A DNA stretch of 19,446 bases from Candidatus Thorarchaeota archaeon (lineage in GTDB: Archaea > Asgardarchaeota > Thorarchaeia > Thorarchaeales > Thorarchaeaceae). Positions 1,790 through 8,871 of the stretch are shown one piece after another. A program made the translations under genes and the position numbers. Each line of letters starts with the position of its first letter. Position 1 is the stretch's first letter. The notes below the pieces were generated by a model. That model searched no databases. It was given only the letters and a program-made list of their open reading frames with translations, and was not told where the DNA came from. Location: the NCBI GenBank assembly GCA_048884785.1, contig JBHLQM010000027.1, forward strand, positions 16,229 through 35,674, read 5' to 3'.

Positions 1790-2515
1790 ATGAAACTGGC
1801 AAAGAAGATATTTGGAATGGCACGCTCCGAGGGAAGGTCCTTTGTCCTTGAGAATGAAGCAAAGGACATCATGAGAGAATACGGTCTGAATATTCCAGCA
1901 TATGCCACCGCAGCTACTCCTGAGGATGCTGTGAGAGAGTCTGCCAAGATTGGCTATCCTGTTGTGCTGAAAATTCTCTCAAAGGATATCCTCCATAAGT
2001 CAGATGCGGGAGGAGTCAAGCTAAATCTAAAGAACGATGCTGAAGTGAAAAAGGCATTCAGTGAGATTATGCAGAATGCAAAGAAATACGGCGAAGAGCA
2101 TGGTGTTGCAGTTGATTTGAGCCGAGGTGTCTTCATTACTGAGTTCGCAGAAATGGGAACGGAGGTCATTGTCGGGGTAACCAAGGACCCACAATTTGGA
2201 CATGCCATTATGTTTGGTCTGGGAGGCATATTTGTTGAAGTGCTGAAAGATGTCACCTTCAGATTAATACCTCTGACGGAAAATGATGCACGTGAAATGG
2301 TGAGCGAGATCAAGGCCGCAAAGATCTTGGACGGAGTAAGGGGACAGGGGCCACGAGATATTGACGCACTTGTCGACGTAATACTTGGTGTTTCGAAAAT
2401 GGTTTCTGAGAATCCAGAGATAATTGAACTTGACTGTAATCCAACCTTTGTCTATGAACGTGGAAAGGGTGCAGTGGTTGTGGATGCTAGGATCCTGATT
2501 GATACTAGCCATTAA
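1790..2515 (+). CDS. acdB: Acetate/acyl-CoA ligase (ADP-forming), beta subunit (ATP-grasp)
   Basis: GYPVVLKI, ILHKSDAGGV (second catalytic His), DPQFGHAIMFGLGGIFVEVLKDV, ELDCNP, VDARI. Lies directly after acdA. Confidence 0.94.
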   Translation: MKLAKKIFGMARSEGRSFVLENEAKDIMREYGLNIPAYATAATPEDAVRESAKIGYPVVLKILSKDILHKSDAGGVKLNLKNDAEVKKAFSEIMQNAKKYGEEHGVAVDLSRGVFITEFAEMGTEVIVGVTKDPQFGHAIMFGLGGIFVEVLKDVTFRLIPLTENDAREMVSEIKAAKILDGVRGQGPRDIDALVDVILGVSKMVSENPEIIELDCNPTFVYERGKGAVVVDARILIDTSH

Positions 2516-3698
2516 CTAGATGGTCTACAAGAACAAGACCTCTCATGATATCAGAATCATTGAGTTGACCTGGAGTTATTTTTGTGCCAGCGGAAATCAA
2601 TAGAAGCAACGAAATGACTCTGGGTACCAAACGTGAATTCTGAAGCAAAAACTCCCTGTTTCCAGCCGCATCAATAACATATCCCTCAATCCTTCGAGTG
2701 AGGAGAGAAATATGCTCGTTTAGACCCTCAGAAGGCTTCAACTGTTTGAAGAGGCGTACTACGGATTCCTCGTTGTTGAAACTATCGGGAGAGAAACCAA
2801 CACTCTCGAGTTGCTTTATTGAATCCAACGTGAACATTTCATAGTCTTCCTCTTCTATACGTTTCTTCTCTTTTCCTACACTTTGAAGCTGTGCCAGCAA
2901 GCGAAGGGAATTTGTCAAAATAGAGCGAGATGCGGCTGGACTAGAGGGAGTTAGTTGCGTTAGAAAAGAACCATGTTGTTCTTCAAGATGTGCTGCCATT
3001 GAAGAGCTAATTTGACGTTCAAATCCAGGAGAGAACGCAACGACCGCGGCATTGAGCAATTTTGAACTGGCACCAATGCGACGGCTTGCAACAAGTGCTC
3101 TGAAGTCTTCAATTGAAATGTAAAATAATAGGATTCTGATTACATCATATGCTCTCTCGAAATCCGCCTCATTGGTTGAAGACCGGCCTTCATTCCTGCA
3201 AATCAGGGCACTGAGTAATTTCCATGCTGATGATAGAGAATCACATAGTTCATTTCTAAGCCTCGATTCTGCTACTCCTTGCTCATCCAGAAACCGCTTT
3301 AGTTTCTCTTCGGCCGCATTGACTCTGTTCAGAGTTGATATATCAAGTGTGATATCAGTGACTGATTTCATGAATTCTCTCGGTTCACGTATTCTTGGTC
3401 GAAGAACTAGTGCAGGTTCTTTTCTATCGATAATCCACCATTTTGTTGTGGAAGATACCTGATCAAGCATGTCAATCGCAATCGTCAGATCGGCTCTTCC
3501 AACCACAAAACGTGAGTCAAGATAAGCAACAAGACGAGAGATGAGACCTATAAAGTGAGAGAGATGAATGGAAAGACTCTTACTTTCGAAGGCATAGCTT
3601 GAAAATCGTCCTACAAACTGACGGACTTCTTCCTGAATATCATCACCAAGACGTGTCTGAGTAAGCGCACGATAGACGTCAATTGGTGTTCTCGCCAT
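2505..3698 (-). CDS. Hypothetical all-helical protein with four apparent AAA-lid/histone-fold-like repeats
   Basis: 397-aa ORF with ATG start and a TTATATAA element upstream (3773-3780). Its 3' end overlaps acdB convergently. No Walker motifs seen. The repeat call is by eye. Confidence 0.75.
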   Translation of the reverse strand: MARTPIDVYRALTQTRLGDDIQEEVRQFVGRFSSYAFESKSLSIHLSHFIGLISRLVAYLDSRFVVGRADLTIAIDMLDQVSSTTKWWIIDRKEPALVLRPRIREPREFMKSVTDITLDISTLNRVNAAEEKLKRFLDEQGVAESRLRNELCDSLSSAWKLLSALICRNEGRSSTNEADFERAYDVIRILLFYISIEDFRALVASRRIGASSKLLNAAVVAFSPGFERQISSSMAAHLEEQHGSFLTQLTPSSPAASRSILTNSLRLLAQLQSVGKEKKRIEEEDYEMFTLDSIKQLESVGFSPDSFNNEESVVRLFKQLKPSEGLNEHISLLTRRIEGYVIDAAGNREFLLQNSRLVPRVISLLLLISAGTKITPGQLNDSDIMRGLVLVDHLVNG

Positions 3699-3808: not shown

Positions 3809-4576
3809 CTATTTCCCAAAACGGCGAGATCTCTTCTGGTATGACCGTAAAGCGCGCCAAATATCAATTCGACGCACAGCTGGCCAATATACTTGCTCAA
3901 AATATAGTTCCGAGTAAGCAGATTGCCAGAGCAAGAATCCCGATAGCCTCTCCTCACCAGATGTACGTATGATTAAGTCTGGATCTGGAATGTCCTTTGT
4001 ATAGAGATGGTCTTCTATTAGATCCTCGTTAATGCCATCAGGCTGAAGAATACCATCCTGAATCTTGTGACTAATTGCCTTCACTGCATCAACAAGCTCA
4101 GTTCTGCCAGAGTAGCCAACTGCAATATTAAGAGAATAATCACTGTATTCTTTGGTCTCCTCTTCAGCAGCATGAATTGCCTCTTGGAGCTTCTCAGGCA
4201 AAATGTCGATCCGTCCTATGGCCTGTATGCGTACCTTGTGTTTTCGTACATCGGGATTGCCAATCACTTCAGCGAACTTGCTTTCCAGAATGCCCATGAT
4301 CTCCTCGACTTCTTCACGTGAGCGTTGAAAATTCTCAATAGAGAATGCATAGAGAGTGCATACCTTGACGCCAGCCTCCCAGAGAATCCGGAGGACCTCC
4401 ATTACCTTCTGGGCTCCGGCCCGATGGCCATACCAAGGTATTTCCAAGCCCTGTATTCTGGCGTATCGTCTGTTGCCATCAAGTATCAATCCTATATGTC
4501 GAGGGTTCTTACTCTCATCAAGCTGTCTATGCAACCACCACTCATAGAGTCGATATACAGGACCTGCAATATTCAA
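3809..4576 (-). CDS. uppS: cis-prenyltransferase (polyprenyl diphosphate synthase, UppS family)
   Basis: PRHIGLILDGNRRYA, GH..G, TLYAFSIENFQRS..EV, AVGYSGR.E, PDPDLIIRTSGEERLSGFLLWQSAYSELYF, C-terminal RRFG. TTG start. Confidence 0.97.
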   Translation of the reverse strand: MNIAGPVYRLYEWWLHRQLDESKNPRHIGLILDGNRRYARIQGLEIPWYGHRAGAQKVMEVLRILWEAGVKVCTLYAFSIENFQRSREEVEEIMGILESKFAEVIGNPDVRKHKVRIQAIGRIDILPEKLQEAIHAAEEETKEYSDYSLNIAVGYSGRTELVDAVKAISHKIQDGILQPDGINEDLIEDHLYTKDIPDPDLIIRTSGEERLSGFLLWQSAYSELYFEQVYWPAVRRIDIWRALRSYQKRSRRFGK

Positions 4577-4638: not shown

Positions 4639-5010
4639 TCAAATCATCTCTGCTATCTTATCAGCCGCTCGTTTCATGTCAAGGAAGACCAGGCCCAGCT
4701 TGGCTTGGTCAGTTGTAGATACCGTGAGGCAAGCGTTTAGTCCTGCCTGAATTGCAAGTAGCCATCCATTGTCACCCTTGATAATCACCTGTTCCAGCGC
4801 ACCTTTCCCAAGCTCAATTGCCGCCTTTTCTCCTAGGGTGAGCATTGCTGCAGTCATTGCTGCGACCTTCGCCTCGTCAACTTCATTGGGGAGGGCAGAT
4901 ACAATCGGAAGTCCTTCTACGCTAACTATCGCACATGCCTCTATCTCAGGGATGCTGCCTTGGAGCTCATTGAGAACTCCTTCCAGTGTATCACCGCGTG
5001 TCTGACTCAT
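4639..5010 (-). CDS. Roadblock/LC7 domain protein (MglB-like, likely GAP partner of the adjacent GTPase)
   Basis: Roadblock pattern IEACAIVSVEGLPIVSAL...VAAMTAAMLTLGEKAAIELGKGALEQVIIKGDNG...AKLGLVFLDMKR. ORF track starts at 5022; ATG at 5010 after GGTGAGG is preferred. Closely follows the GTPase stop at 5027. Confidence 0.92.
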   Translation of the reverse strand: MSQTRGDTLEGVLNELQGSIPEIEACAIVSVEGLPIVSALPNEVDEAKVAAMTAAMLTLGEKAAIELGKGALEQVIIKGDNGWLLAIQAGLNACLTVSTTDQAKLGLVFLDMKRAADKIAEMI

Positions 5011-5026
5011 TGACCTCACCATAGGT

Positions 5027-5590
5027 TCATTTGTACATACGTTTAAGGATTACCTCTCTGGCTATTGCTTGGAATGCTCTTTTAACTCCAACCCCTTGCA
5101 CTGCGATGGTCTCGTAGATTGGGACATTACTGCCAAGACCAAGGAGATCAAGCATCTCGTCTCTAGACATTCGATTTGGCAGGTCTCGTTTGTTTAGCAT
5201 GACCACTATTGGTATATTGCGACCAAGTTCATCTCCGAGGAACAACTTCAGTTCCTCAAAACTCTCCGTGTTCTCCTCCCGTTGGTCCGGTGATGAGTCG
5301 GCTACAAAGAGCAAGCCGTCTGTGCCTTGAAGCACTACTTTTCTCTGGTGGCGGTGTCGCTTCTGACCGGCTACTGTGAACACATCGAATAGAACACGAC
5401 CGCCCGCGCTCATCGGTACATAGTCAAAGAACAGTGTTCGATTCGTTTCATCTTCGATAGCTGTGAACTCACCTTTCTGGAGGCCTTCTACTTTTCCATA
5501 GAGCCATCTCAGAGCAGTGGTTTTACCACCGAGGGATGGCCCATAGAAGACCAGCTTAAGATGAATGCGTCCTTTGTCATCCTTACGCAC
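5027..5590 (-). CDS. mglA: MglA-family small Ras-like GTPase
   Basis: G1 GPSLGGKTT; switch I ETNRTLFFDYVP (MglA signature RTLFFDF with the intrinsic Arg); G3 TVAGQ (MglA TVPGQ instead of DxxG); GTDGLLFVADS; G4 NKRD; G5 TIAVQGVGV. GTG start after GAGGTG. Confidence 0.92.
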   Translation of the reverse strand: MRKDDKGRIHLKLVFYGPSLGGKTTALRWLYGKVEGLQKGEFTAIEDETNRTLFFDYVPMSAGGRVLFDVFTVAGQKRHRHQRKVVLQGTDGLLFVADSSPDQREENTESFEELKLFLGDELGRNIPIVVMLNKRDLPNRMSRDEMLDLLGLGSNVPIYETIAVQGVGVKRAFQAIAREVILKRMYK

Positions 5591-5763: not shown

Positions 5764-6225
5764 TTAGACACGCTCGAGCTCTGCGAGGGCTGACTTCAGG
5801 TCTTCCTCATCAAGCTCATCCTTGCCTGGAGATGGTTCGACTGCCAGGAACTTATCGAGCTCTTCAGCAAGCTGTACACCCTGCTTCCTCATCACAAGAC
5901 GGATCATACCGATATTGACCTCTGCTTCAGATACAACACAGAGGACGCCCTTTCCACATGCAGACGCGAATATCTTGCCCTCTGAGAACTCTGAAGTCAC
6001 TATCTCAAGCTCGCCGATCTGAAGGTTCTTACCCTGTTCTTCGCTGGCGCAGAATACAGCACTCGCGATTGCCCCGATACTATCAGTGTCTACGGCATAG
6101 TAGGACAGCTTTGACACGTTTGCAATTGTGAGGCCTGTCTTATCGACAAGAATCACTTTCTTGATTCCCTTGTCCTGCCTAATGATATCAGTCAGTATTC
6201 GATCAAATGCTTTTGGATCACTCAT
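5764..6225 (-). CDS. Roadblock/LC7 domain protein with acidic C-terminal helix extension (MglB-like)
   Basis: IKKVILVDKTGLTIA...IGAIASAVFCASEEQGKNLQIGELEIVTSEFSEGKIF...NIGMIRLVMRK, then a linker and ELDEEDLKSALAELERV. GGAG SD site upstream of ATG. Confidence 0.9.
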   Translation of the reverse strand: MSDPKAFDRILTDIIRQDKGIKKVILVDKTGLTIANVSKLSYYAVDTDSIGAIASAVFCASEEQGKNLQIGELEIVTSEFSEGKIFASACGKGVLCVVSEAEVNIGMIRLVMRKQGVQLAEELDKFLAVEPSPGKDELDEEDLKSALAELERV

Positions 6226-6237
6226 GATAGTATCTCC

Positions 6238-6537
6238 TTATTCATTGTTCTTTAGGACCACTAGGATAAGTCCTTCCTTTGGTTCCGGGGCGATATTAAT
6301 CTGCCCACGACTGGTGTCGAGGGTCAGAAACGACAGCGTCCCCTCCTTTAGTTCGCGAACGGCATCCATTGCCTTGCCAACCAAGGAGGTTATGATAGCA
6401 GCGACGATTTCTGTAGTTTCGGGGTCAATATCGCTACTGAGGGGTAGTCCTTCCATTGTGGTAACGACTACTCCGCGGACACCTTCTTGTGCCCTCAGTC
6501 GCTTAAGAATTGCTTGAAGTTTTTCTTGACTTATCAA
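6238..6537 (-). CDS. Short Roadblock/LC7 protein resembling dynein light chain roadblock type (no C-terminal alpha3 helix)
   Basis: [32 protein letters not shown]...KAMDAVRE...LSFL...INIAP...LVVLKN. The ORF track's first 36 aa (from 6645) look non-coding. TTG at 6537 after GCGGGGA gives 99 aa. Confidence 0.9.
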
Positions 6538-6679
6538 ACTTGGGAATCCCCGCTGCTGTCTTGTGCAATTCGCAAATCTTACCACTCTGGAGAGTATTTT
6601 AGAGTTGTGGAGATGTGCTACGCGCAGATAGGTGATTTTGCGCATTTTGTTATAATCTTGTATTCTCCGTGTATGTATG

Positions 6680-6723
6680 AAAAAAGGATTGGATAGCGCA
6701 ATAATCGACCTTACGCGCTATCC
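6680..6723 (-). terminator. Hairpin plus oligo-T terminator downstream of the Sec23/24-like gene
   Basis: Perfect 9-bp inverted repeat GGATAGCGC (6691-6699)/GCGCTATCC (6715-6723), followed on the minus strand by AATCC-TTTTTT, starting 10 nt after the stop codon. Confidence 0.7.
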
Positions 6724-6733
6724 TGAGCGAAGA

Positions 6734-8368
6734 TTACTCTTCTTCTTCTTCTTCAAACATCTGTTTGGAACTCTTCCGCATCTGGGCAAGACCTTTGGTA
6801 AACGCCTCATCTGCTGCTGCAGAGGGAGCGCCTGATGGGGCCTCCTCCATCATCTGATCGAGCTGCTCCATCTCATTCTCTTCAGCCCTTAGTGCGTCTT
6901 CCACCATTTCGTATTTTGCCTGTGCAGGTTTTGGCGCTGCTTTGGCATATTCTTTCATTGCGGACCTAAAGGCAGCAATGCGCTTCCTGCCCTTCTTTCT
7001 ACCCTCAGCTCCTTCAGCAAATGACTCCTCACCAGCTTTCTGTGTAACAAAGGTTGCTCCAAGCGTTGGGTCTAGGGTATCCATGACCTCCTCCTCCTTC
7101 TTGGCAACCTTGAGCGTGGCGGTGACCGCACGGATTCTTCGAGCACCCTCCTCGTCTGTGTATGTAACTTGAACCTGAATGGGTACCTCATCTTCTTTGA
7201 TTTCCTTCTCAGGTTCAACTTCAAAGTAGAGCTCATGGTTCTCTCCGACCACTCCGATTTTGCTCTCCTTCCTCTTGGTCAGCTCTTCTATGACGGTGCG
7301 GGATACGCCCGATGCATCTTTTACCTTGACTCCCTTAGGAGTCACAAGCCTTACTTCCACATCGCGTCCAAGCAGACTTGCGCCAGCAAGTTCTGAGATA
7401 CTCTTGTCCAGTTCATTGGGCGTGACATAGTACATCTGGCCTCCTGTAGCCTCTGGTAGTAGACCCAAGGTCTTCAGTTCCATACCAGCACCTGATGCGA
7501 TTCCAACAACATCGACCGAAGTTCCGAATTCGAGAAACTTGCGGCCCATCTCTTCATAGAAGGCTCCTGCAGGAGTGACCTGATATCCCTCAAGAGCCCC
7601 AATTCCTTCGTTAGCAAGTCCATCAGTCAAGAGGACTACTCGTCCTACATTGCGGTGCTTAGCAACAACTGACGCCATTGCGACTGCAGGACCCAGAGCT
7701 GTGCCACCTTGATCTCGTAGAGAAGCGACGTGACTCTTGAGTCTATCAGCATTCTTGCCAACATGTACGAGTTTGATTTTGTCTAGCAATTTCTTTGTAG
7801 CATTGACAATGTTATCATAGCTTGGAAATGACTCATGTGGGAGCTGTATTTCATTCCCCGTTTCCAAATCTCTATAGAGCACGCTGCTCTCAAACTCGAC
7901 CAGCCCAAACTGTGTATCGGGTGCATTTGCAGCCAAGCTCTCAATAGATGTAGTTAGACTTCGCTTGACAGCGGATAGATTTGCTCCAGCCATTGAACCT
8001 GATACGTCTATGAGCGCTAGGAATGACCTTCCACCCGTGGAGATGGTCCCAGTTTCAGTTTCAGTTTTGACAGGAGGAGGCTTGATTAGAAAGTCCCCAT
8101 CGTCTCCAGCAAGAACGACTTCTCCTCCTATAATGTTCAAGGTTCCACAGAACGCACAGTGGAAAAATTTTCCAACTTTATTGTTTTCTTCCACTTGCTC
8201 TACACTCATCAGAAAGCCGCCACATTTCTGGCATGCAATAGGCTTTCCTATAATCTTCGTTACATCCTTTGCGAGGTCTCCAAAACCAATTCGCAGGACA
8301 TACGGAATATCGCTCATCAGCTTCTTTGATGCTGGAAAAGCCTCTGAGCTCGTTCTTAACATAGGCAT
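6734..8368 (-). CDS. Sec23/Sec24-like protein (Zn finger + vWA trunk + beta-sandwich + short helical region)
   Basis: Zn finger PIACQKCGGFL...FHCAFCGTLN; vWA with DVSGS, GGTALGPA, RVVLLTDG, FYEEMG...SVDV, TGGQMYY; beta-sandwich VEVRLVTPKGVKV...G, LYFEV, IQVQVTYTDEEGARRIRAVT (Sec23/24 consensus as recalled: Q...Y....G.RRIRV.T). ATG at 8368 follows GGAGGT; ORF track start is 8398. Confidence 0.85.
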   Translation of the reverse strand: MPMLRTSSEAFPASKKLMSDIPYVLRIGFGDLAKDVTKIIGKPIACQKCGGFLMSVEQVEENNKVGKFFHCAFCGTLNIIGGEVVLAGDDGDFLIKPPPVKTETETGTISTGGRSFLALIDVSGSMAGANLSAVKRSLTTSIESLAANAPDTQFGLVEFESSVLYRDLETGNEIQLPHESFPSYDNIVNATKKLLDKIKLVHVGKNADRLKSHVASLRDQGGTALGPAVAMASVVAKHRNVGRVVLLTDGLANEGIGALEGYQVTPAGAFYEEMGRKFLEFGTSVDVVGIASGAGMELKTLGLLPEATGGQMYYVTPNELDKSISELAGASLLGRDVEVRLVTPKGVKVKDASGVSRTVIEELTKRKESKIGVVGENHELYFEVEPEKEIKEDEVPIQVQVTYTDEEGARRIRAVTATLKVAKKEEEVMDTLDPTLGATFVTQKAGEESFAEGAEGRKKGRKRIAAFRSAMKEYAKAAPKPAQAKYEMVEDALRAEENEMEQLDQMMEEAPSGAPSAAADEAFTKGLAQMRKSSKQMFEEEEEE

Positions 8369-8505
8369 GCAATTATACCTCCAAAAACTTGCGGCCACTC
8401 ATGCATGAAAGGTATTAAGTAGTTCGACGATGAAACTCGGGAACGAACAACATTTAAACAGGAGGGCGTTTAGAGGAAAAGCAGTACTCCCTAAGGTGAT
8501 AATAG

Positions 8506-8871
8506 ATGGTTGACCAGACAAAAATCAAGGGTATTGTCAGTGACACAATGGCTGCAAACGCAGACATTGAAGGAATAATTGTATGTGATTCGAAAGGGCA
8601 GGTAATATTCGGTCACACACTATCTGATGGTATCAAGCATGACGATGTTGCCAAGCTTGTTGTCAAAATCTCGGCGAATTCGTCCTCGCTCACTTCTGGC
8701 ATCGACAAGGGAGGACTCAAGGAGGTCAGCATTGCTGCTGATGACGGATTTATCGTTATCCTCGGGGATGTTAAAATGGTGCTTGCGGGAATTGCGGGCG
8801 AGGGTTCCCGGGAACAGATGGGATTAATTCGCATGGCACTAAGGCGTGCGCTCCTCTCCATGATTAGCTAG
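8506..8871 (+). CDS. Roadblock/LC7 domain protein (fourth, divergently transcribed)
   Basis: IEGIIVCDSKGQVI...IDKGGLKEVSIAADDGFIVI...QMGLIRMALRR. SD AAGGTGA and a TATA-like TTTAAA at about 8453-8458; T-run after the stop (8897-8902). Confidence 0.82.
   Translation: MVDQTKIKGIVSDTMAANADIEGIIVCDSKGQVIFGHTLSDGIKHDDVAKLVVKISANSSSLTSGIDKGGLKEVSIAADDGFIVILGDVKMVLAGIAGEGSREQMGLIRMALRRALLSMIS

Follow-up and report, generated by a model that had tools for sequence, protein, structure and literature searches.

Asgard archaea encode roadblock/LC7 proteins, which are counted as eukaryotic signature proteins. The dynein roadblock light chain DYNLRB is a homodimer, and MglC of Myxococcus is a further precedent for the regulation of the GTPase MglA by several roadblock proteins. 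Such multi-roadblock regulation has been described in Myxococcus for MglB acting with RomY (PMC9481161, in the accessible part of that article). The short roadblock kind is already known in Asgard archaea from the crystal structure of Odin-RBLC7 (OLS18093.1, PDB 7F8F), which was solved by molecular replacement with the fly dynein light chain LC7 (3L7H) and revealed a homodimer without a C-terminal helix (Tran, Akil, Senju and Robinson, Commun Biol 2024, PMC10933270). According to the accessible text of the same article, the vacant helix position of DLRB1 and of LAMTOR4/5 takes a helix of the intermediate chain or of LAMTOR1, and a helix-binding site for a partner was proposed for Odin-RBLC7 as well; that text does not describe the gene-cluster context of Odin-RBLC7.

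Here we analyze a window of 19,446 nucleotides from a Candidatus Thorarchaeota archaeon (GenBank assembly GCA_048884785.1, contig JBHLQM010000027.1), which encodes four roadblock proteins. The shortest of them is the Thorarchaeota ortholog of Odin-RBLC7, and we call it RBLC7; the three long ones are named RB153, RB127 and RB121 after their number of residues. RBLC7 and Odin-RBLC7 belong to the same length class and both lack the C-terminal helix, but they come from different Asgard lineages, and the Thorarchaeota gene has a Sec23/24-like gene upstream and a non-ATG start. The short architecture is also shared with DYNLRB1/2, LC7 and km23 (PDB 1Z09, 2HZ5, 3L7H/3L9K; TM 0.8-0.9), whereas the genomic partners of RBLC7 are an MglA GTPase and MglB-like roadblocks. 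The short Ragulator pair LAMTOR4 and LAMTOR5 (HBXIP) likewise lacks α3, its open face lying under a LAMTOR1 helix. What RBLC7 has in common with MglB and MglC of Myxococcus and Thermus is its gene cluster, which also encodes an MglA ortholog and an MglB-like protein; it differs from MglB in lacking α3, in having no detectable sequence match to MglB chains of the PDB and in standing apart from the RB153 clade, the MglB-like protein of the locus being RB153 and not RBLC7. The coordinates of all features are given in Table 1.

Table 1. Features of the RBLC7 locus, in positions of the window.
Feature	Positions	Strand	Remarks
RBLC7-type short roadblock gene	6238..6537	minus	99 aa; TTG start; TAA stop at 6238-6240
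Shine-Dalgarno-like GGGGAT	6546..6551	minus	About 10 nt upstream of the TTG; putative, read from the sequence
RB153 long roadblock	5764..6225	minus	Pfam Robl_LC7 and MAPKK1_Int; starts 12 nt after the RBLC7 stop
RB153 acidic C-terminal helix	5767..5817	minus	~[DE][DE]L[KE]xAL.ELE[KR][VF]; low-confidence model
MglA-family small GTPase	5027..5590	minus	187 aa; M. xanthus MglA at E 1e-38, Arf far behind
RB127 long roadblock	4639..5022	minus	Thor-RB ortholog (PDB 7F8M, E 2.8e-23); starts 4 nt past the stop of MglA
Prenyltransferase homolog	3809-4576	minus	Pfam Prenyltransf on its ortholog
397-aa protein	2505-3698	minus	No Pfam match
Sec23/24-like protein	6734..8398	minus	Sec23_trunk, vWA, Sec23_BS (beta-sandwich)
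RB121 long roadblock	8506..8871	plus	Divergent; beside RBLC7 in many Asgard families
Hairpin (6691-6723) and U-run (6680-6686)	6680..6723	minus	Just after the Sec23/24-like stop

Start codon and fold of RBLC7

The interval assigned to RBLC7 is translated without interruption into 99 residues, the stop codon being included in its coordinates. A longer, ATG-initiated frame of 135 residues from position 6645 was ruled out as the RBLC7 gene on comparative evidence. The homologs listed by a word-indexed search are mostly 96-99 residues long; the start position is TTG or GTG in the 33 loci nearest to the window (L001-L033, nearly all labelled Thorarchaeota); in three of these loci (L006, L011, L012) a stop codon lies directly upstream of the RBLC7 start; and a motif of the GGGGAT type (GGGGAT, GGAGAT or GAGGAT) is kept about 10 nt 5' of the start in most related loci. 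In the most distant of the 34 loci, L034, labelled Heimdallarchaeota, an ATG occupies the same start position, and the solved ortholog 7F8F likewise begins at aligned residue 1 in the phmmer alignment. The conserved non-ATG start (window 6535-6537 and L001-L033) may keep translation of RBLC7 tuned low relative to that of RB153.

The match of RBLC7 to the Pfam family Robl_LC7 has an E value of 1.2e-16 and spans positions 3-90 of the 91-position profile, and the LAMTOR5 family reaches a borderline 27.3 bits against a cut-off of 27. The AlphaFold2 model, built from a 22-row alignment with pLDDT 89, consists of a helix at residues 4-15, strands at 20-27 and 32-35, a second helix at 39-62 and strands at 71-75, 78-85 and 90-97, in the order α1-β1-β2-α2-β3-β4-β5, so that the last element ends at residue 97 of 99 and the third helix is absent. 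Orthologs in 20 other Asgard loci measure 94-105 residues. Reading frame and model thus bear out the first-pass annotation, which had described a 99-residue roadblock ending after its last β-strand without α3. The other three roadblocks (153, 127 and 121 residues) run 22-54 residues past the domain.

Relationship to dynein roadblock light chains

A phmmer search of all PDB sequences places RBLC7 closest to 7F8F, deposited as a 94-residue "Robl_LC7 domain-containing protein" (E 1.4e-27; residues 1-96 against 1-94), followed by dynein roadblock light chains, among them those of human, mouse, fly and Chlamydomonas. The human DYNLRB1/Dnlc2A chains match with E 1.5e-13 to 2.7e-13 over almost their full length, aligned to residues 5-96 or 7-96. 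In this search the DYNLRB chains reach 39-54 bits and Asgard long roadblocks score far lower (7F8M E 0.005, 7YH1 E 0.65), and no MglB chain appears among the PDB matches at E values up to 10. BLASTP aligns macaque DYNLRB1 at 36% identity and 63.9 bits; the roughly 30% estimated by eye in the first-pass annotation was slightly low. The sequence likeness to DYNLRB far exceeds what chance would give. The long roadblocks of the same genome reach only 23-41 bits against RBLC7 where BLASTP aligned them. When the RBLC7 model was compared with solved structures using Foldseek, 7F8F again came first (59% identity, TM 0.92 by target) and the next 17 hits were dynein roadblock chains, with TM values of 0.75-0.90 and identities of 21-34%; lower in the ranking stood the Asgard long roadblocks, LAMTOR2/p14, a roadblock from Streptomyces and HBXIP, the likeness to LAMTOR5/HBXIP being much weaker than that to DYNLRB (TM 0.70, 19-20% identity).

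The word-indexed search listed 120 matches, all with at least 78% identity, and those with names are from Thorarchaeota, Lokiarchaeota and Promethearchaeota, mostly Thorarchaeota MAGs; it covers close homologs alone and is uninformative on distant kinship. An exhaustive HMMER scan of 1.84 billion representative proteins gave 257 hits at E ≤ 0.001, in which about 20 archaeal (Asgard) clusters come first and eukaryotic DYNLRBs then dominate. Among the 140 full-domain hits, 99 share an identity of 43% or more with macaque DYNLRB1, and every named non-eukaryotic cluster is from Asgard archaea (Heimdall, Hod, Borrarchaeum, Thor and Promethearchaeota). Two large repetitive Ig-like/vWA proteins, P0227 (928 aa) and P0246 (2629 aa), failed a jackhmmer check as roadblocks and were treated as false positives. 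A 314-residue protein recorded in NCBI/Logan on four contigs (P0139) has an RBLC7-type domain at about residues 148-235, flanked by a basic, helical N-terminal part and a C-terminal tail that contains Cys, and could be either a natural fusion hinting at partners or a gene-call artefact.

Within the sampled genomes of the phylum, RBLC7 is matched at E ≤ 1e-8 in 173 of 201; it is found in 80 of the 85 high-quality genomes and in 22 of 27 families, nearly always as a single copy. Some of the weakest matches, those of families f14 and f22 with E between 1e-9 and 1e-13, may be paralogous short roadblocks, and no match was obtained in the genomes searched from families f17 and f20.

For phylogenetic analysis, orthologs of RBLC7, RB153, RB127 and RB121 were gathered from 20 further Asgard genomes. 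The resulting trees rest on about 100-120 columns, have the Asgard long roadblocks as their sole contrast (bacterial MglB, MglC and LAMTOR2-5 being left out) and carry the root on a long branch. The careful 72-row tree unites all archaeal short roadblocks, Odin-RBLC7 included, with eukaryotic DYNLRB in a single clade (support 100/98) on a long stem, with DYNLRB itself at 100/100, and each long family stands separately (RB153 99/98, RB127 98/89, RB121 100/97); a quick 144-row tree agrees. No bootstrap tree contained a branch splitting the syntenic Asgard RBLC7 rows from the other groups, which suggests that DYNLRB may arise within syntenic Asgard RBLC7, and an AU test did not reject a sister relationship of the eukaryotes to all archaeal short roadblocks (p 0.254). 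The membership of RBLC7 in the RBLC7 family is secure and, judged by these sequence comparisons, it is the closest archaeal relative of DYNLRB/LC7. The end-to-end resemblance to DYNLRB/LC7 claimed from the sequence at the outset is accordingly upheld by phmmer, BLASTP, Foldseek, the exhaustive search and the trees; the opposite outcome considered there, a grouping with generic prokaryotic MglB or roadblocks, was not what we found, RBLC7 being a short roadblock of the DYNLRB/LC7 type. In the literature searched, which was incompletely covered, we found no paper on Asgard archaea together with DYNLRB and no explicit placement of eukaryotic DYNLRB with syntenic Asgard RBLC7.

The same genome encodes a second short roadblock without α3 (G000:C5:67068-67301; L059:5057-5380, minus strand; Pfam Robl_LC7 E 6e-13), whose gene lies a short way 5' of RadA/Rad51 in the same orientation. 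The trees place this protein on a long branch within the short-roadblock clade, apart from the RBLC7/DYNLRB group.

To our knowledge, archaea have no dynein. Dynein_heavy (PF03028) and Dynein_IC2 (PF11540) had no match in the 91%-complete genome, in a search run without a positive-control genome, so that absence is not demonstrated by it. RBLC7 is presumably not a dynein subunit, and its cellular role probably differs from that of DYNLRB, given that the neighbouring genes encode an MglA GTPase and roadblocks of the MglB-like kind.

Gene neighbourhood in Thorarchaeota and other Asgard archaea

On the minus strand the genes run in the order Sec23/24-like, RBLC7, RB153, GTPase, RB127, prenyltransferase homolog and 397-aa protein, and RB121 together with SMC/ScpA/ScpB is transcribed divergently from this run. 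The best solved relative of RB153 is MglB of M. xanthus (E 1.2e-5), followed by LAMTOR2. The intergenic gaps measure 196 nt between the Sec23/24-like gene and RBLC7, 12 nt between RBLC7 and RB153, 173 nt between RB153 and MglA and 4 nt between MglA and RB127, so that the cluster resolves into two tight pairs with larger gaps elsewhere. A stretch of 76 nt holding the hairpin and U-run downstream of the Sec23/24-like gene folds with -19.9 kcal/mol (z -3.6); it is terminator-like, which suggests, as far as can be read from the letters, that the RBLC7-RB153 pair may have a transcript start of its own.

This arrangement is well kept in the 34 loci related to the window. RB153 follows RBLC7 in 33 of them, and MglA and RB127 come next wherever the contig allows. 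Upstream of RBLC7, 31 loci carry the Sec23/24-like gene; of the remaining three, L018 and the Heimdall-labelled L034 lack it, and L002 is truncated by the end of its contig. With L034 set aside, the close loci share with the window 94-99% identity in MglA, 86-95% in RB153, 78-94% in RBLC7 and 58-81% in SMC. The MglA range, observed across the 32 closest loci that carry the gene (nearly all labelled Thorarchaeota), amounts to an unusually strong constraint, as expected for a protein with several binding partners. Some of these loci show individual features: in one Thorarchaeota MAG (L018:5273-6001) RB121 is directly beside RBLC7, as in other Asgard families, and two Thorarchaeota loci (L003:2857-5924 and L031:6766-10695) have 3-4 kb of extra DNA between RB153 and MglA, a distance that is otherwise about 150-300 nt. 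The 397-aa protein is found downstream of the prenyltransferase in nearly all 34 loci, at 41-66% identity.

Beyond these relatives, RBLC7 adjoins RB153 in 14 of the 17 other Asgard families sampled, the exceptions being f5, f9 and f24. MglA comes after RB153 in ten of those families, in most of which RB127 and the prenyltransferase follow, and RB121 is divergently adjacent to RBLC7 in many, so that the order RB121 / RBLC7, MglB-like RB153, MglA, RB127, prenyltransferase is held in many Asgard families. In family f3, whose RBLC7 scores nearest to the level of 7F8F, the gene of one genome likewise adjoins RB153 and RB127 orthologs. No Sec23/24-like gene was found at the RBLC7 locus of the other Asgard families sampled, including f2 of the same order; it is an insertion between RB121 and RBLC7 that is seen in the Thorarchaeota family only. 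Neither the pan-Asgard RB121 / RBLC7 - MglB-like - MglA - RB127 cluster nor this Thorarchaeota-specific insertion was found described in the literature searched, the coverage of which was incomplete.

The linkage is not uniform. RBLC7 is solitary in f9, f24, Borrarchaeum and the P0136 lineage; in f5 MglA comes directly after it, and in f5, f9 and f24 an RB153 ortholog is present elsewhere in the genome. In Heimdall/Hod-type loci the gap between RBLC7 and RB153 is about 170 nt, compared with 12 in the window. Families f17 and f20 have neither a detectable RBLC7 nor a close RB153 (best scores 20-36 bits) and keep MglA at about 50% identity, and in one f6 genome (93% complete) RBLC7 was not found, though RB153 is present. 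The genomes concerned are related and few, and the co-occurrence of RBLC7 and RB153 is suggestive only.

Partners and role of RBLC7

The first-pass annotation had stated that in dynein the missing helix position is filled by a helix of a partner, which agrees with the account of Tran et al. (2024, PMC10933270, accessible text), and had extended this to RBLC7 by naming the tails of RB153 and of the Sec23/24-like protein as possible fillers of the groove. The general idea of a partner helix is therefore not new and repeats the published proposal for the Odin ortholog; neither of the two specific candidates is supported. The C-terminus of RB153 is an acidic amphipathic helix that hardly varies; a Pro-rich linker of 10-25 residues, variable in length and sequence, precedes it, and all Asgard families sampled retain the helix motif. 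This layout resembles that of the MglB Ct-helix; of the AlphaFold2 model of RB153, which is poor (pLDDT 52, 14-row alignment), the secondary-structure pattern alone was used, and with caution. In the MglA-MglB structure of M. xanthus, residues 131-146 of MglB are disordered and the helix 147-157 of one protomer binds a pocket of MglA formed by α5, β2 and the β2-β3 loop, where it promotes nucleotide exchange; D/E-rich Ct-helices of this kind pair with Lys/Arg-rich α5 helices (Baranwal 2019, PMC6785124). The C-terminal helix of the window MglA, as read from its sequence, is rich in Lys and Arg. By analogy, the RB153 tail more likely addresses MglA than the RBLC7 groove, although Ct-helix binding was not predicted in an AlphaFold3 model of a Thorarchaeota MglA-MglB-like pair, according to the accessible text of a 2026 paper, which does not specify the roadblock modelled. 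The tail of the Sec23/24-like protein shows patchy conservation with some conserved helical patches, and it cannot serve as a general RBLC7 partner because its gene lies at the locus in the Thorarchaeota family only, and is missing there in L018, whereas RBLC7 is nearly universal in Asgard archaea.

The prediction of an RBLC7-RB153 complex, made with the two proteins' own alignments, gave an ipSAE of 0.58 compared with 0.00 for the best of three controls, which counts as weak support. Three runs share at least 91% of contacts, with a partner pLDDT of at least 78. In the calibration, 80 solved complexes and 110 mismatched pairs were scored, of which 58 and 2, respectively, reached the mark; at scores of 0.60 or less, the passes comprise 7 of the 80 solved complexes and both passing mismatches, and the RBLC7-RB153 score is judged to fall in a range in which a pass is more likely to be false than true. 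The pass may also be a recall of solved roadblock heterodimers in the PDB. Since the prediction returned a score without contacts, it says nothing on the filling of the groove.

Taking the evidence together, we favor as the probable reading that RBLC7 is a subunit of one or more roadblock platforms regulating MglA, probably paired with or docked onto RB153, with its sheet face free for an effector helix. RBLC7 would thus be a dimeric platform subunit in an MglA switch module rather than a motor light chain; most likely it would pair with or dock onto RB153, its uncovered β-sheet face could accept an effector helix, and in Thorarchaeota the Sec23/24-like protein would be a candidate client of the RBLC7/MglA module. 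A functional linkage of RBLC7, RB153 and MglA is indicated by the conserved order, the 12-nt gap, the joint absence in f17 and f20 and the MglA and MglB-like identities of the neighbours, and it is weakened by the lineages in which RBLC7 is solitary and by the f6 genome that has RB153 and in which RBLC7 was not found. Proximity of genes does not prove binding, nor is a heterodimer with RB153 needed, given that the Odin ortholog and DYNLRB are both homodimers. The same homodimers are the starting point of a different reading, in which RBLC7 is a free homodimeric adaptor whose two grooves take helices encoded elsewhere, its MglA/MglB-like neighbourhood reflecting loose co-regulation. This is the model proposed by Tran et al. 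(PMC10933270, accessible text) from the crystal of Odin-RBLC7, and the solitary genes of several Asgard lineages and the wide gap of the Heimdall/Hod-type loci are consistent with it; yet it has to account for the recurrent RBLC7-then-RB153 order in other families and for the families where RBLC7 and a close RB153 are both missing, and it comes without a named candidate partner. We regard it as a serious competitor, though an unlikely one.

Filling of the α3 groove by the C-terminal tail of RB153 or of the Sec23/24-like protein seems to us distinctly improbable. The near invariance of the RB153 helix and the flexible linker after its own α3, by which it could reach a neighbouring protomer in a heterodimer, would suit such a role, as would the complex score and the conserved helical patches of the Sec23/24-like tail. 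Against this stand the MglB-like character of RB153, the binding of the acidic MglB Ct-helix to the α5 region of MglA and not to a roadblock groove, the Lys/Arg-rich helix of the window MglA that matches what is reported for such pairs (Baranwal 2019, PMC6785124), the lack of contacts in the complex prediction and the confinement of the Sec23/24-like gene to the loci of one family when RBLC7 is pan-Asgard. Hardly credible at all is the notion that RBLC7 is an ordinary MglB-type GAP subunit whose likeness to DYNLRB is a convergence brought about by short length: its seat in an MglA/MglB-like cluster and its placement by Pfam in the general Robl_LC7 family alone would allow this, but DYNLRB chains and, at E values up to 10, no MglB chain are retrieved from the PDB, the short roadblocks and DYNLRB form a strongly supported clade apart from the Asgard long roadblocks, and length does not explain the scores because the alignment takes in the same stretch of about 90 residues whether a roadblock is long or short.

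The cluster itself names proteins to try as partners of RBLC7. The clade-mate of DYNLRB is this short form in particular and not roadblocks in general. A speculative extension, to which we attach little probability, is that the DYNLRB ancestor was a near-universal Asgard subunit of an RBLC7/MglB-like platform controlling MglA, with an effector-docking groove that dynein co-opted later. The ancestral platform would then have been asymmetric, combining the helix-less RBLC7 with an MglB-like partner bearing a single Ct-helix, and effectors would dock in the RBLC7 groove, in Thorarchaeota for example the Sec23/24-like protein. Independently of this extension, the near-universal presence of RBLC7 in Asgard archaea, its place beside an MglB-like protein and MglA and its clade with DYNLRB offer a concrete and testable setting for the role of a dynein light chain ancestor before dynein.
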